Source: Alphaproteobacteria bacterium
GTDB taxonomy: Bacteria; Pseudomonadota; Alphaproteobacteria; UBA6615
Direction of reading: 5' to 3'
DNA length: 58,797 nt
Assembly: GCA_965261975.1 (NCBI GenBank)
Contig: CBDHEC010000034.1
Location: forward strand, 1-58,797
A program made the position numbers and the translations under genes. Positions 30,470-51,689 of the stretch are shown here, one piece after another. Every line of letters starts with the position of its first letter. Position 1 is the first letter of the stretch. The notes under the pieces are model-generated. The model worked only from the letters and a program-made list of their open reading frames with translations. It had not been told where the DNA came from and did no database searches.

Positions 30470-31024
30470 ATGTGCCGAAACACAGTGTCGATCTTTCTCG
30501 GTGCCTTTTTGCTGCTGACGGGCAGTGCGGGGATCGCCGATGAGCCCAAGCGCAGCTGGGAGGCCACGATCTCGGCGCGCACGCTGAATGTGCGGGCCGG
30601 CCCGGGCGAGGGTCATCCGATCGTCAGCAAGCTGAAGCGCGGCGACAAGGCCCGCGCCTTCGATGAGGACGGCCGCTGGATCCATATCCGTGAGTTCGAC
30701 GACACCGATGCGATGGGCTGGGTGCACCGGTCATTCGTGCTGTTGCCCAAGGAGTTCATGGCGCCCGCCTTCGGGAAGGCGGAGAATGATTTCCTCGAAT
30801 GGGCCTCGCAGCGCGGCGACCTGTCGGAGGTCTCGGTCGAGGCCGATGACCGGATTTCGATCATACTGGGCCCCGGCGTGGCCGCGGACCGCGCCGACGC
30901 GATTGCGCGCGACGTGGCCTGCACGTGGCGCGAACTGCTTGATCCGAAAGTCGACGTGACGGCGACGGTCTGGCCGGACACGGGCACCGGCGCCGGTTGG
31001 GTGACCCAGACACGCTGTCCCTAA
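30470..31024 (+). CDS. Secreted SH3 (SH3_3/SH3b) domain protein
   Basis: Signal peptide, LNVRAGPG, GRWIHI, GWVHRSFV; AGGAG RBS. Confidence 0.85.
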   Translation: MCRNTVSIFLGAFLLLTGSAGIADEPKRSWEATISARTLNVRAGPGEGHPIVSKLKRGDKARAFDEDGRWIHIREFDDTDAMGWVHRSFVLLPKEFMAPAFGKAENDFLEWASQRGDLSEVSVEADDRISIILGPGVAADRADAIARDVACTWRELLDPKVDVTATVWPDTGTGAGWVTQTRCP

Positions 31025-31668
31025 GGTTTGACGATCCGCCCCGTGCGGATCGCCACGGATTTGTCGGCAACACGTTCCGCGAAAACCGCATTCTGTTCGG
31101 CGACGAGGATCGCCGCGCCCGACGCCGATAATTCTCGAAGAGCGGCGGCGACGTCGTCGATGATTTGTGGGGCGAGGCCCAGGGTGGGCTCATCGAGAAG
31201 ATAGACATCGGGTTGGGCCATCAGGGCGCGGCCAATGGCCAGCATCTGCTGCTGGCCGCCCGAGAGCTGCCAGGCGCGGTCGTTCGTCCGTGCGGTGAGC
31301 TGCGGGAACAGGTCGAGCGCATCGTCGAACCGTTTTCGCCGCTCTTTTGCGTCGGACGGGCCGGCGACCAGCAGGTTTTCCCCCACGGTCAGGCCCGGAA
31401 AGACCCGTCGCCCCTCGGGCACATAGGCCAGGCCGGCGCGGATGCGGGCCTCGGTGGGCAGCTGCGAGATTTCCTGTGCGCCGAGACGAATGTTCCCCTT
31501 TGCTGCGGCGAGTCCGACGAGGGCGCGGAGCAGGCTTGATTTGCCGGCCCCGTTCACGCCGACCAGGCAGGTGATGGCGCCGGGTGCGGAGTCGAATGAT
31601 GCGTCGGCGACCGCGACAACCGCACCATGACGGACCGTCAGATTCTCGACCTGCAGCGCGGCGCTCAT
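31021..31668 (-). CDS. Branched-chain amino acid-type ABC ATPase (LivF-like)
   Basis: GVNGAGKS, YVPEGRRVF, LSGGQQQML, LLDEPTLGLAP, EQN. Confidence 0.92.
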   Translation of the reverse strand: MSAALQVENLTVRHGAVVAVADASFDSAPGAITCLVGVNGAGKSSLLRALVGLAAAKGNIRLGAQEISQLPTEARIRAGLAYVPEGRRVFPGLTVGENLLVAGPSDAKERRKRFDDALDLFPQLTARTNDRAWQLSGGQQQMLAIGRALMAQPDVYLLDEPTLGLAPQIIDDVAAALRELSASGAAILVAEQNAVFAERVADKSVAIRTGRIVKP

Positions 31669-33383
31669 GGCTGCACCAGCCCGAAATAGGCGCGTCGCAC
31701 GGCGTCGTTGGCGAGGACGTCGTCGAGGGGGCCGTCGGCGATCAACCGGCCGGCGTCGAGGCAGGCCAGGCGCGTGGCGAGCGGCCGCAGGAAATCTATG
31801 TTGTGGTCGATCACCAGGATCGCGAGGCCGGTCGCGGCGAGGGTGCGCAGGATTTCGGCGATCTCTGCCTGTTCGCCCGGGGCGAGCCCGGCGGCCGGTT
31901 CATCGAGGACCAGGAGGTCCGGTCCGCCTGCCAGCGCGCGGGCGATCTCCACCCGCCGTCGCATCCCGTGGGCAAGCGTGCCGCAGTTTGTGGCGGCGAT
32001 GTCCGTGAGGCTGCATGTGGCCAGCGCGCCGGCGGCGCGTGCGCTGTTGAGGTTTGCGTCACCGATATGGGCCGCGGCGGTTGCCACCGCTTCGTGGACC
32101 GTCAGCCCGTCGGGCAGCTGGGGGGTCTGGAATGTGCGCGCGATGCCCCGGCGCGCGATGGCCGTGGGGGCGGCGGTCGTGAGATCGAAGCCGGCGGACC
32201 GGATGGTGCCGGAATCGGCCCGGTCGATACCCGTGACGATGTTGGCCAGCGTGGTCTTGCCCGCGCCGTTGGGGCCGATCATTCCGACGATGTCGCCAGA
32301 ATTGATTGTCAGGGCGACGTCATCGAGCGCCTGAATGCCGCCATAGCGTTTGGAGAGGTTGGTGATCTCCAGCACCGGTGGGCCGTCGGGAACCGGGGTT
32401 GCCGGCACGGCGATCGCGGGTTCGGTCGTGGATGGGGGCGATGGTCGCGGGGGCTTGATGAAGGAAGCCAGCCCGTCGGGTGCGAACACCACCATGGCCA
32501 GCAGCAAAACGCCGACGGCAACGAGATAATACTCATCGAGACCGCGAAACCATTCCGGCAGGTGGGTCAGCAGCAGCGCGCCGATGACTGCGCCGAGGAT
32601 GCCGAAGCGCCCGCCGACCACGGTCATGGTCAGGCATGTGACCATGATTCCGAAGCCAAGCGTCTCGGGCGAGACCACCCGGTTGGTGTGCACGAACAGC
32701 GCACCGGCCGCCCCGCCGAAGGCCGCACTCAGCAGGAAGGCACGCAGGCGCAGCAGGCCGGGGTCGATGCCGAAGGCCGGGACCGCCAGCGGGGTCTCGC
32801 GCATGACCGTGAACACTGCGACCCGCAGCGGGTTGAGCTGCCAGCGGGCGATGAGCATTGCCACCACCGCCATGCCCCAGACGAACAGGAGGAGCGGCAC
32901 GCCGCGCGTGGCCTGCCAGTCGCCGATGGTGACCGGCGGGACGCCGGGCAGGCCGTTGGCGCCGCCCGTGACCGATTCCCAGTTCACCGCGATCAGCAGC
33001 AGGAGCTGGCTCAGGGCCAGCGTGGCCAACGCGAAGTAATGGGACGCCAGGCGCAGGACCGGCACGGCGACGATCAGCGCCAGCACGCTCGTCCCGATGA
33101 TGGACAACGGGAAGGTGATCAGGAACTCCGCCCCGTACCGGCTGGCAAGAATGCCCGTTACATAGGCCCCGAGGCCGAAGAATGCGCCCTGGGCGAGGCT
33201 CAGCGCGCCGGCATGACCGAAGATGAACTGATAACCCAGCACCATGATCACGTAGATGCCGGCGAGTGTGAGGATGCGCTGGTCATAGGAGGACGCGAAG
33301 AACAGCGCATAGATTGTCAGAACGAATCCCCCGGCGACGACCGGCAGGTTTCGTCGGTTCAGATATGAAGAAACAGCGCTCAT
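31665..33383 (-). CDS. Fused LivM-like permease / LivG-like ATPase
   Basis: GHAGALSLAQGAFFGLGAY, YFALATLA, TGGANG; C-terminal GPNGAGKT, GIARTFQ, LDEPAAGL, AYFG. Confidence 0.9.
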   Translation of the reverse strand: MSAVSSYLNRRNLPVVAGGFVLTIYALFFASSYDQRILTLAGIYVIMVLGYQFIFGHAGALSLAQGAFFGLGAYVTGILASRYGAEFLITFPLSIIGTSVLALIVAVPVLRLASHYFALATLALSQLLLLIAVNWESVTGGANGLPGVPPVTIGDWQATRGVPLLLFVWGMAVVAMLIARWQLNPLRVAVFTVMRETPLAVPAFGIDPGLLRLRAFLLSAAFGGAAGALFVHTNRVVSPETLGFGIMVTCLTMTVVGGRFGILGAVIGALLLTHLPEWFRGLDEYYLVAVGVLLLAMVVFAPDGLASFIKPPRPSPPSTTEPAIAVPATPVPDGPPVLEITNLSKRYGGIQALDDVALTINSGDIVGMIGPNGAGKTTLANIVTGIDRADSGTIRSAGFDLTTAAPTAIARRGIARTFQTPQLPDGLTVHEAVATAAAHIGDANLNSARAAGALATCSLTDIAATNCGTLAHGMRRRVEIARALAGGPDLLVLDEPAAGLAPGEQAEIAEILRTLAATGLAILVIDHNIDFLRPLATRLACLDAGRLIADGPLDDVLANDAVRRAYFGLVQP

Positions 33384-34263
33384 GCGCGCAACCGCCCGGG
33401 CTCGCCGAAGATGCCGTCGGGCCGGATCAGCAGCACCAGGAGGACGGCCACATAGAGCAGGCCCTCCGCCAGGGGTTGTGACGATATTGATGCCACGCCG
33501 ACTTCGAAGAACGCGATGAGCATGGCACCCAGTGCCGCACCACGCAGGCTGCCCCAGCCGCCGATGACGACCGCGATATAGGCCTTCAGGATCAGGGCCG
33601 CGCCGTCCGACGGGGTGACGAAGAACTGATGCGCAAGCAGCAGCCCCGCGGCCCCGGCGAAGGCGGTGCCAAGCGCGAAGGCCAGCAGGGTGATCCGGGT
33701 CAGGCGAATGCCCAGCGCGCGTGCCATCTCCGGATCCTGGGCGCAGGCGCGGAACTGGCGGCCAAGCTGGGTGCGCTGCAGGACGAAGGCGAGCGCGCCG
33801 ACCAACAACACCGCCGTGGCGATGATCGCGAGGGACTGGCGGCTGGCAGCAACACCCAGAAACTCACGGTGCCCGTGCCAAGAAGCGCGGGTGCGGTTCT
33901 CGGGGCGGCACCGAAGGCCGCGTTGAGGCCGTTGGTCACGATGATGCCGAAGGCGATGGTGGTGACGAAGACCGAGACCGGCGGCCGGTTGCGGATGGGC
34001 AGGTAGGCGAGCCCGGCGATCGCCAGGCCGAGTCCGGCGGTGAGAAGCAGCACGCCCGGCAACAGGATGACCCCGGGAATGTTGGTGCCCGCGGGGACCA
34101 GCATCGCGAGCGCGACCGCCGCGAACCCGCCGGCGACGACGCTCTCGCCATGGGCGAAGTTCACGGCCGTTGTCGCGTTCAGGACGAGGACGAAGCCGAT
34201 GGCGACGAGCGCATAGGCCGCACCCAGTGCCACGGCGTTCAGGGCGAGCTGTGCGCCGAGCAT
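33380..34263 (-). pseudogene. LivH-like ABC permease, split by one frameshift near 33865
   Basis: YALVAIGFVLV..VNFAHG in one frame; RTQLGRQFRACAQD...VVIGGWGS..RPDGIFG in another. Adding one G (GTG [G]AG TTT CTG) fuses them. Confidence 0.85.
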
Positions 34264-34283
34264 CAGCGGTATGTTTTCATCGG

Positions 34284-35411
34284 CTAGAGGACGCCCGTGA
34301 GGTTCTCGTAGCGCTTGACGATGGCCGGAACCCGGCTGTCGCCGCCATAGCAGAGGATCACCGCGGAATGGGCCATGTTGCCCTTGCCGTCAGACGCGTA
34401 GGTCATGGCGAGACCCTTGTAGCGCTGGGTCGAGAGGTACTCGCGGACATCGGTAGCGGATGTCGCTCCTTCCTCGATCGCGGCGAGCAACATCTGCACC
34501 CCGTCATACTGGCCGAGCGCGAACGCGTCCGGCTCGCGGTCGAAGGCGGCCCGGTAGGCATCGGCAAAGGCCGCGATGTCGGGGTCGGTCTCGGAGATCG
34601 GCGATGCACCCGATTCCGCACAAACCCCTGCCAGCTCCGTCGGTTCCAGCAGAGCGGCCGTTTCCGGCTGGTGCATGGCCGAGCCGGCGATGATGGGAAT
34701 GTCGAGGCCCATCGCGCGGGCCTGGCGCACCACCAGGGCTGTCGGGCCCGCATGGAGATGGAGCAGTAGCGCATCGGCGCCGGAGTCCCGGACCTTGCTG
34801 AGGACCGGCAGCATGTCCTTGACCGAGACGTCGAGCCCCTCGGCAAGGATCGGCGGGTGGCCCAGTGCTGAGAGGTTGCGGTCGAGCTCCGCGCGCCCGC
34901 TCTGGCCGTAGGCCGTGGTCTGGAAGATCACCGCCGGGCGCTTGGCGTTGCGTTCTTCGACGGCATAGCGGGCATGGGCGGCCTTGACGACCACGTCGCC
35001 GGGGAAAAAGCGAAAGACATTGGGGCTGCCCAGCTCGGTGATGCGCGCGGTCCCCGACACGGTCACCATGGGCACCTCGAACTCATCGGCCAGCGGCACG
35101 AGTGCCAGCATCTGGGTGCCGAGCATGGGCGCGACCACGGCCGCCACGTCATCGCGCTTGCGGCCCGACGTCAGGGCGCGCTCGAATGCGTTGACCGCGA
35201 TCTCCGGCGAGGTGGCTGTGTCGTCGACTTCGAATTCGACCCCCGAGCCGCGCAGCGCCAGTTCGGCGCCGTTCTTCTGACTGGTGCCCTCGAGCGAGAG
35301 AAATCCGGTAATCGGTACCAACACGGGGATGCGCAGCGGTTCGGCCTGGGCCACGGTCAGCGTGGCGAGGAACGCGGATAGGGCGAGGAAAATGCGCGGC
35401 AATGCAGACAT
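34284..35411 (-). CDS. Liv-type (periplasmic binding protein type 1) ABC substrate-binding protein
   Basis: Signal peptide (AQA|E), LRIPVLVPITG, DDTATSPE, PNVFR, TAYGQ, YDGVQML; GGAG RBS. Confidence 0.9.
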   Translation of the reverse strand: MSALPRIFLALSAFLATLTVAQAEPLRIPVLVPITGFLSLEGTSQKNGAELALRGSGVEFEVDDTATSPEIAVNAFERALTSGRKRDDVAAVVAPMLGTQMLALVPLADEFEVPMVTVSGTARITELGSPNVFRFFPGDVVVKAAHARYAVEERNAKRPAVIFQTTAYGQSGRAELDRNLSALGHPPILAEGLDVSVKDMLPVLSKVRDSGADALLLHLHAGPTALVVRQARAMGLDIPIIAGSAMHQPETAALLEPTELAGVCAESGASPISETDPDIAAFADAYRAAFDREPDAFALGQYDGVQMLLAAIEEGATSATDVREYLSTQRYKGLAMTYASDGKGNMAHSAVILCYGGDSRVPAIVKRYENLTGVL

Positions 35412-35473
35412 GTCTCGACTCCGATGCGTTGGTCCGGGATCGGGGCGGGTGGAGTGTCTGCGAAAGACGATCC

Positions 35474-35559
35474 GTGACAACTCCCTCCGCCGGCATAATC
35501 CGGATCAGGTTTGTGGGTTTCTTCTCAGCCCCGATTTTGGTGGGGCACCCCAGCGTCAC
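35474..35559 (-). ncRNA. TPP (thiamine pyrophosphate) riboswitch
   Basis: Minus strand reads GTGACGCT-GGGGTGCCCC..GGGGCTGAGA.GAAACCC..AACCTGATCCGGATTATGCCGGCGGAGGGAG-TTGTCAC: conserved GCUGAGA, ACCUGA and GCGnAGGGA elements, closed by a GTGAC/GTCAC stem; ~60 nt upstream of ATG 35411. Confidence 0.93.
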
Positions 35560-35604
35560 GAACTGATGGAACGATGGGTTGCGGACGACGATGAGTCAAG
35601 CGGG

Positions 35605-47329: not shown

Positions 47330-47406
47330 CGGGAAGTAGCTCAGCCTGGTAGAGCACTACGTTCGGGACGTAGGGGCCGGAGGTTCGAATCCTCTCTTCC
47401 CGACCA
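47330..47406 (+). tRNA. tRNA-Pro (CGG)
   Basis: 77 nt; acceptor CGGGAAG/CTTCCCG + ACCA, D arm GCTC/GAGC, anticodon arm CTACG-TTCGGGA-CGTAG, T loop GTTCGAATC. Confidence 0.97.
47361..47406 (+). repeat. att core (tRNA-side copy)
   Basis: GTTCGGGACGTAGGGGCCGGAGGTTCGAATCCTCTCTTCCCGACCA, identical to 52792-52837. Confidence 0.95.
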
Positions 47407-51516: not shown

Positions 51517-51689
51517 CTGTCATATCGCGCGGCCAAAGGAGAAAACCGCCATATTGTGACGGGGTTTTTCGACTGCGGCACTCACCGTCTAATCCGCATC
51601 CACCCACCCGCATCTGTGGCCCCGGTGGCAGGGTCATTATCGTTTAGCGTCTAAATCTAAAGACGGAATCGAGCATGAGTGTGACGCGG

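Follow-up and report, generated by a model that had tools for sequence, protein, structure and literature searches.

Why should a transporter of the branched-chain amino acid (Liv) type stand behind a riboswitch for thiamine pyrophosphate (TPP)? The question was raised by a contig of 58,797 nucleotides (CBDHEC010000034.1, assembly GCA_965261975.1, an alphaproteobacterium of the GTDB lineage UBA6615), the whole of which is referred to as the window. On its minus strand, a TPP aptamer directly precedes a four-gene operon for a Liv-type ATP-binding cassette (ABC) transporter. We consider it very likely that this operon encodes a thiamine-related importer under TPP control. Its substrate is probably the thiazole moiety, that is, 4-methyl-5-hydroxyethylthiazole (HET), its 2-carboxylate (cHET) or a close derivative, which would make the system a TPP-repressed thiazole importer of the Liv/HAAT family.

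The features of the locus, in the order of transcription, were as follows:
35464–35562, minus strand: TPP riboswitch aptamer (RF00059), 60.8 bits against a gathering score of 54.3
35412–35463, minus strand: expression platform, read from the sequence
34284–35411, minus strand: periplasmic substrate-binding protein, 375 aa, signal peptide ending AQA/EP, Peripla_BP_6 E 1.9e-43
33380–34263, minus strand: LivH-type permease in two frames, BPD_transp_2 matched by both halves
31665–33383, minus strand: LivM–LivG fusion, 572 aa, BPD_transp_2 at 36–297 and ABC_tran at 353–497
31021–31668, minus strand: LivF-type ATPase, 215 aa, last gene, ABC_tran E 6.3e-30

The aptamer was matched by the Rfam covariance model over its whole length (model positions 1–105, E 1.7e-9). 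The cores CUGAGA and ACCUGAUCCGG..GCCGGCG..GGGA were found, and the P3 stem, which is variable, was short. Only two TPP matches were obtained in the entire 3.03-Mb genome, that of the window being one of them. The initial annotation had described a clear minus-strand TPP aptamer about 60 nt upstream of a four-gene Liv-type operon (binding protein, LivH, LivM–LivG fusion, LivF). The aptamer was confirmed by its above-threshold Rfam score, the Pfam domains agreed with the gene assignments, and the distance from the 3' end of the aptamer to the ATG of the binding-protein gene was 52 nt.

Riboswitch and operon are paired far more often than chance would allow. When relatives were sought with the binding protein, 279 were obtained, and the best 80 loci were kept for the pairing counts; they belonged to marine alphaproteobacterial metagenome-assembled genomes (MAGs), Azospirillum species, Nisaea and one Stellaceae MAG. 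In 71 of the 80 loci, a sequence pattern for the TPP core had a single occurrence, placed directly upstream of the orthologue, and four pattern-positive control loci were all verified by Rfam. Among the nine remaining loci, the Rfam aptamer was detected at threshold in two and slightly below it (51.9 and 53.4 bits) in another two, two had no upstream DNA, and three (L031, L055 and L078) gave nothing at E 0.01. In sum, a TPP aptamer preceded the binding-protein gene in 75 of the 78 loci having upstream DNA. As regards the three aptamer-less loci, ThiG was present in two of the genomes, and the third was without ThiG and ThiE matches.

The gene order, including the LivM–LivG fusion, was repeated in most complete loci, and in most of them a single match spanned the greater part of the fusion; for L049, L056 and L082, no one-piece match above the 60-bit filter was obtained. 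The link between riboswitch and operon was kept over at least 15 alphaproteobacterial families. The initial annotation had proposed looking for TPP riboswitches before orthologues of the binding protein, and the counts above answer this in the affirmative. Its view of the operon as a new system for the uptake of thiamine or one of its precursors appears well founded in the light of such conservation. It had also foreseen mislabelling as an amino-acid transporter, and indeed all named homologues carried the name 'ABC transporter substrate-binding protein' or 'branched-chain amino acid transport system substrate-binding protein'.

Two copies of riboswitch plus binding protein were observed in one MAG (G023, contigs C20 and C21; L005 and L007, 90% and 87% identical to the query), a state that could reflect duplication, a mixture of strains or contamination. 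The leader of L007 contained a tandem repeat, with GTCGTCTGTCACAG present twice between aptamer and start codon.

How the riboswitch might act was examined in the 52-nt leader. The 3' half of the aptamer has its complement in the segments CUCC..CCGCC..CCGGA, of which the CUCC is also able to pair with the GGAG Shine–Dalgarno sequence located 8–11 nt before the ATG. The GGAG/CUCC and GGCGG/CCGCC pairs were kept in 9–11 of 11 orthologues, mostly as invariant bases, and hence with little covariation. Scanning of the window leader revealed no terminator-like site between aptamer and ATG, and the promoter scan no sigma-70-like site. When folded as a single sequence, the leader was no more stable than its shuffled versions (z 0.49), and the aptamer was not recovered. 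The pairing possibilities point to translational control of the operon by masking of the Shine–Dalgarno sequence.

The genes of the operon form a complete HAAT/Liv (TC 3.A.1.4) set, consisting of a Peripla_BP_6 binder, two BPD_transp_2 permeases and two ABC ATPases, the BCA_ABC_TP_C tail of LivG scoring 24.1 bits, slightly below the cut-off of 25.5. None of the NCBIfam equivalog models for LivJ, LivH, LivM, LivG, LivF or UrtA–E passed its cut-off: the binding protein reached 54.1 against 477 and the best ATPase 206 against 286, and the top matches of the LivF ATPase, UrtE and LivF, were both under theirs. The operon is bordered downstream by a convergent SH3-domain gene and upstream by an hspQ/YccV gene.

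The two frames of LivH, not seen in the initial annotation, were traced to a 1-nt deletion near 33864–33866. The gap was located against L004, L005 and L007; these relatives, with 87–94% protein identity, carry the base and have both LivH halves in a single frame. An extra C behind 33864 was also present in contigs from the public runs X2, X5 and X8 (approximately 98.5% identity); the contig of run X1 stopped short of the site, the run sharing the most words had no contig that spanned it, and no run shared more than 0.38 of words. The frameshift thus reflects an error of assembly or else a lesion or pseudogene specific to the strain, and the transporter family, taken as a whole, is intact.

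Which part of thiamine supply such a transporter might serve was approached through the thiamine genes of the window's genome (G000; 3.03 Mb, 59 contigs, 94.6% complete). ThiD (TIGR00097, 293.5 bits, cut-off 205), ThiE (TIGR00693, 158.7 bits, cut-off 145) and ThiL were present. In contrast, ThiC, ThiG, ThiS, ThiH, ThiO, ThiM, TenA, TPK (PF04263), ThiK and ThiB were not found with Pfam models, with E. coli, Azospirillum and Nisaea protein queries, or at relaxed thresholds. A look for missing thi genes had been recommended in the initial annotation, and the loss of ThiC and ThiG alongside retained ThiD, ThiE and ThiL was its outcome. With no synthesis genes of the ThiC or ThiG type, the organism makes neither half of thiamine; with ThiD, ThiE and ThiL only, it can phosphorylate the pyrimidine 4-amino-5-hydroxymethyl-2-methylpyrimidine (HMP), couple it to thiazole phosphate and make TPP.

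The second TPP riboswitch of this genome was located upstream of a NitT/TauT-type operon encoding an ATPase, a permease and a binding protein, similar to ThiXYZ. E. coli ThiB had no match in the genome, and neither ThiB nor ThiP had any in the 80 loci; in the genome, E. coli ThiP gave a single weak match (contig C52, 24% identity), outside the operon.

The same genes were then counted in every genome of the order with a completeness of at least 90%, 30 in total, representing 14 genera. The binding protein was present in 25 of the 30 and ThiG in four (G002, G019, G020 and G021), with zero overlap. ThiE occurred in all 30, and ThiC in a single genome, one with 7% contamination. Since ThiC was so rare, the operon tracks the loss of ThiG and not that of ThiC. 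Thi4 was considered as an alternative thiazole synthase and rejected, as nearly all matches concerned the N-terminal nucleotide-binding part of the profile, the longest covering its positions 13–137 of 235.

The 30 genomes yielded 61 TPP riboswitch matches, from one to three each and mostly two. Of the 25 genomes with the binding protein, 23 had a same-strand match no farther than about 250 nt upstream of its gene, and the other two had the gene at the contig start. The second riboswitch of the four ThiG genomes was found instead 1.4 kb upstream of thiG. Both in regulation and in metabolism, the operon thus occupies the position of thiazole synthesis. The genes behind the riboswitch on the ThiXYZ side were read in the window's genome only among the 30.

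Beyond the order, 25 genomes were reached through the loci; three of them (G033, G035 and G036) proved to be G018, G013 and G017, with identical match coordinates, which left 22 further genomes. ThiE was present in 20 of these, the two without it being MAGs of unknown completeness, and no full-length ThiM match was obtained in the five further genomes searched.

A further case was Nisaea (G032), for which a complete chromosome was available. Its three TPP riboswitches precede thiC (ThiC_Rad_SAM, E 6.8e-137), an operon with a ThiX-like permease and the Liv-type operon; ThiE was present and ThiG absent. As Nisaea keeps thiC, which encodes a costly synthase, without ThiG, it makes the pyrimidine, and thiazole is the sole moiety left to import; besides the ThiX-like system, no transporter other than the Liv-type operon is under riboswitch control. 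ThiC was found once (G049) in ten other ThiG-less carriers, of which two (G035 and G036) were already included in the order count. A supposed ThiE–kinase fusion in Nisaea was rejected, the protein being a plain ThiE of 210 aa encoded in a tkt–gap–fba–thiE–efp cluster. In both the window's genome (L092, contig C24) and Nisaea (L097), thiE was seen in a conserved housekeeping cluster, tkt–gap–fba–thiE–efp–suhB, away from thi genes.

An even sample of Alphaproteobacteria (301 genomes, 248 genera) was also evaluated. The binding protein was found in 20 of the 301 genomes, from at least 15 families, ThiM in 32 and ThiG in 147, the ThiG tally including one unpublished genome (G260) on which no other result depends. 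ThiG was absent in 15 of the 20 carriers compared to 139 of the 281 non-carriers (Fisher p 0.036, uncorrected for kinship).

Thiazole is favoured as substrate because the operon is complementary to ThiG, and ThiD, ThiE, ThiXYZ and, in Nisaea, ThiC are retained. Where the initial annotation had left the choice between thiamine and its precursors, the tracking of ThiG absence together with the retention of ThiD and ThiE narrows it, in our interpretation, to thiazole.

The binding protein itself was compared with known structures. Its AlphaFold2 model (predicted local distance difference test score 90.8) has the cluster-B/type-I fold, and the best structure matches in the PDB, found with Foldseek, were Liv-type binders, 14–24% identical, whose ligands are amino acids, aromatic acids, urea and amides. 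The Foldseek searches of the PDB and the ESM Atlas returned only generic Liv-type relatives and no clue to the ligand; the PDB sequence search (best E 1.6e-19) gave no close relative. Across 46 orthologues, the mean column identity was 68%.

For the pocket, the ligand residues of LivJ, which we take to be Y18, S79, A100–T102, Y150, Y202 and E226, and whose positions fit the LivJ sequence, were aligned to the binding protein. T102 and Y150 were kept as T121 and Y168, both invariant, as are Q100, H247, Q248, E266 and H348. In contrast, Y18, S79 and Y202 were replaced by invariant E41, G98 and H220, and the position of E226, the residue that holds the amino group of the ligand in LivJ, was variable and preceded by an invariant six-residue insertion, GSAMHQ. 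The pocket therefore departs from LivJ at four of six ligand positions and does not have the make-up expected for an alpha-amino acid; this speaks against an alpha-amino acid as ligand, and the ligand itself is not identified thereby.

The proposed mechanism would proceed as follows. At low TPP, the aptamer would be unfolded and the ribosome-binding site free, so that the operon is translated; when TPP is bound, the aptamer would close and the released CUCC would mask the Shine–Dalgarno sequence. The binding protein, re-tooled for the purpose, would capture HET, cHET or a close derivative from the environment. The imported thiazole would be phosphorylated by a putative kinase in place of ThiM, and then coupled by ThiE to HMP pyrophosphate. 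HMP would enter by the ThiXYZ-like system under its own riboswitch and be phosphorylated by ThiD, and ThiL would make TPP in the last step.

Several observations weigh against thiazole import. ThiM (PF02110) was found in none of the 30 genomes of the order and, in the class sample, in one of 20 carriers compared to 31 of 281 non-carriers; with no ThiM, one has to postulate either an unknown kinase or a substrate that arrives phosphorylated. None of the 80 loci had a thi gene of the E. coli type within 6 kb of the operon. Within the order, one genome (G014; 400 contigs, one riboswitch) was without both ThiG and the binding protein, and the exclusion of ThiG could be accounted for by just two evolutionary events, with genera g3 and g14 set against the rest; the pattern in the 30 genomes needs caution because related genomes are not independent. 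Outside the order, the operon coexisted with ThiG in 11 of the 22 further genomes, mostly Azospirillum, and the enrichment of carriers for ThiG-less genomes in the class sample was modest. The pocket comparison, finally, depends on the LivJ ligand residues being those listed above. The coexistence with ThiG is common in soil lineages and parallels the presence of salvage systems in prototrophs, E. coli being an example.

The chief alternative is that intact thiamine, or thiamine monophosphate (TMP) or TPP, is imported, the operon playing the role of ThiBPQ in lineages without it. Import of this kind was judged unlikely, although it has several points in its favour: TPP riboswitches often precede thiamine importers, no ThiB homologue was found in the window's genome, in Azospirillum the operon accompanies a complete de novo pathway, as is the case for ThiBPQ in E. 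coli, and the absence of ThiM would need no explanation. However, with neither TPK (PF04263) nor ThiK in the window's genome, known enzymes could not activate free thiamine. Moreover, ThiE, which was kept in 25 of 25 carriers in the order, ThiD, the riboswitch-controlled pyrimidine importer and the thiC of Nisaea would all be useless.

Less probable still is the import of another compound, such as an oxidised thiazole or thiamine derivative (thiazole-acetic or thiamine-acetic acid), a thiazole in phosphorylated or adenylated form for which no kinase is required, or an amino acid with TPP-dependent metabolism. Liv-type binders often take carboxylates, and a phosphorylated substrate would account for the missing ThiM; however, phosphorylated thiazoles are not known to serve as nutrients in the environment. 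An amino acid fits neither the altered pocket nor the exclusion of ThiG. Azospirillum has an extra TPP-controlled operon with a LuxE-like gene and a short-chain dehydrogenase/reductase (SDR) gene, akin to the salvage of oxidised moieties as presented in the available part of PMC11223231. In contrast, no extra salvage operon was seen in the window's genome and the 30 genomes of the order, with their one to three TPP riboswitches each.

Pyrimidine salvage transporters under TPP riboswitches are common, and the window's genome, without ThiC and with ThiD, would be suited to the uptake of a pyrimidine precursor or degradation product, namely HMP, AmMP (4-amino-5-aminomethyl-2-methylpyrimidine) or its N-formyl derivative (FAMP). 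ThiXYZ, ThiV and CytX are among the transporters listed in the available part of PMC10881298. Nevertheless, a pyrimidine is most improbable, since ThiC was missing in 29 of the 30 genomes of the order, including four without the operon, so that the operon does not track pyrimidine auxotrophy, the role is already filled by the ThiXYZ-like system under the other riboswitch, and Nisaea has ThiC yet retains the operon.

Compared with known systems, the operon shares families, architecture and fold with E. coli LivJ/K-HMGF (HAAT, TC 3.A.1.4). The binding protein is only 21–22% identical to LivJ and LivK, and the window operon differs by the fusion of LivM to LivG and by TPP riboswitch control. The same fold, with TM-scores of 0.78–0.81, was found in the aromatic-carboxylate binders of Rhodopseudomonas palustris (PDB 4evq, 4evs, 4eyg and 4f06), which are 16–19% identical, serve the catabolism of lignin-derived acids and have no riboswitch. 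These binders show that ligands of the Liv-type family can include small aromatic acids, the class of compounds to which cHET belongs.

Among thiamine transporters, E. coli ThiBPQ (thiamine, TMP and TPP) is likewise a binding-protein-dependent ABC importer that is repressed by a TPP riboswitch and serves thiamine supply. It belongs to a different ABC family with a different binding-protein fold, and the gene-content pattern of the present system points to thiazole, not thiamine. ThiXYZ (NitT/TauT type, FAMP/HMP) is likewise a TPP-riboswitch ABC importer of one half of thiamine and forms the partner system in the same genomes; its binder is unrelated (SsuA/NMT1-like), and it serves the pyrimidine branch and is present with or without ThiG. 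ThiW is a predicted thiazole transporter of the energy-coupling factor (ECF) type in Firmicutes, an ECF S-component usually found with thiM and under thiamine-responsive riboswitches. The proposed substrate class is thus shared, whereas ThiW is not a binding-protein-dependent ABC system and its thiM partner is absent here.

Thiamine regulons were reportedly the subject of comparative-genomics work in 2002. The transporters given in the available parts of PMC10881298, PMC12442306 and PMC12998435 are ThiBPQ, ThiT, ThiXYZ, ThiV, CytX, YkoF, ThiPerm and Omr1, with thiM as the sole marker of thiazole use. No thiazole transporter is listed in the corresponding parts of the marine B1 studies among them (PMC10881298 and PMC12998435). 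Full-text literature searches, with supplementary tables outside their scope, revealed no link of Liv/HAAT transporters to thiamine, thiazole or TPP riboswitches.

If the operon is a thiazole importer, genomes that are now scored as incapable of using precursors would have to be reclassified, and a gene marker for thiazole or dual auxotrophy would become available for metagenomes. The Liv family would be extended to a vitamin precursor, and a missing kinase would be indicated. More tentatively, the binding protein might be specific for cHET, which serves as the thiazole currency in seawater, or for cHET in a phosphorylated form, with activation proceeding without ThiM. In that event, a cHET importer and ThiXYZ would constitute a complete, undescribed two-transporter salvage route with an unknown thiazole kinase, defining a 'dual auxotroph' lifestyle in marine Alphaproteobacteria. 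As cultured Azospirillum and Nisaea carry the operon, the question of the substrate is directly testable.

Some further observations were made at other loci. In Azospirillum brasilense (L115, G030, contig C13, 61800–72000), a fourth TPP riboswitch was found near 420–550, before a gene for a LuxE-like acyl-protein synthetase; after it follow a gap in the scan of about 1.4 kb, an ABC ATPase, another gap in the scan, a ThiY-like binding protein and an SDR. LuxE was assigned by Pfam, and the other names were read from the open reading frame sequences. The cluster resembles the OarX/acyl-CoA-synthetase clusters proposed, in the available part of PMC11223231, for the salvage of oxidised thiamine moieties.

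The flanking open reading frames of six loci contained no kinase. In the window's genome, thiD (L093, contig C30, 4674–7309) is followed by two permease genes of the EamA/DMT family (TIGR00950-like) with overlapping ends; no riboswitch was found in this stretch, and the permease genes could be co-transcribed with thiD. In the window itself, Rfam also detected a Proteo-phage-1 RNA (51554–51634, minus strand, 54.5 bits) and, about 4 kb away, a tRNA gene (47330–47403, plus strand, 65.8 bits), a pair that may mark a prophage or an integrated element.

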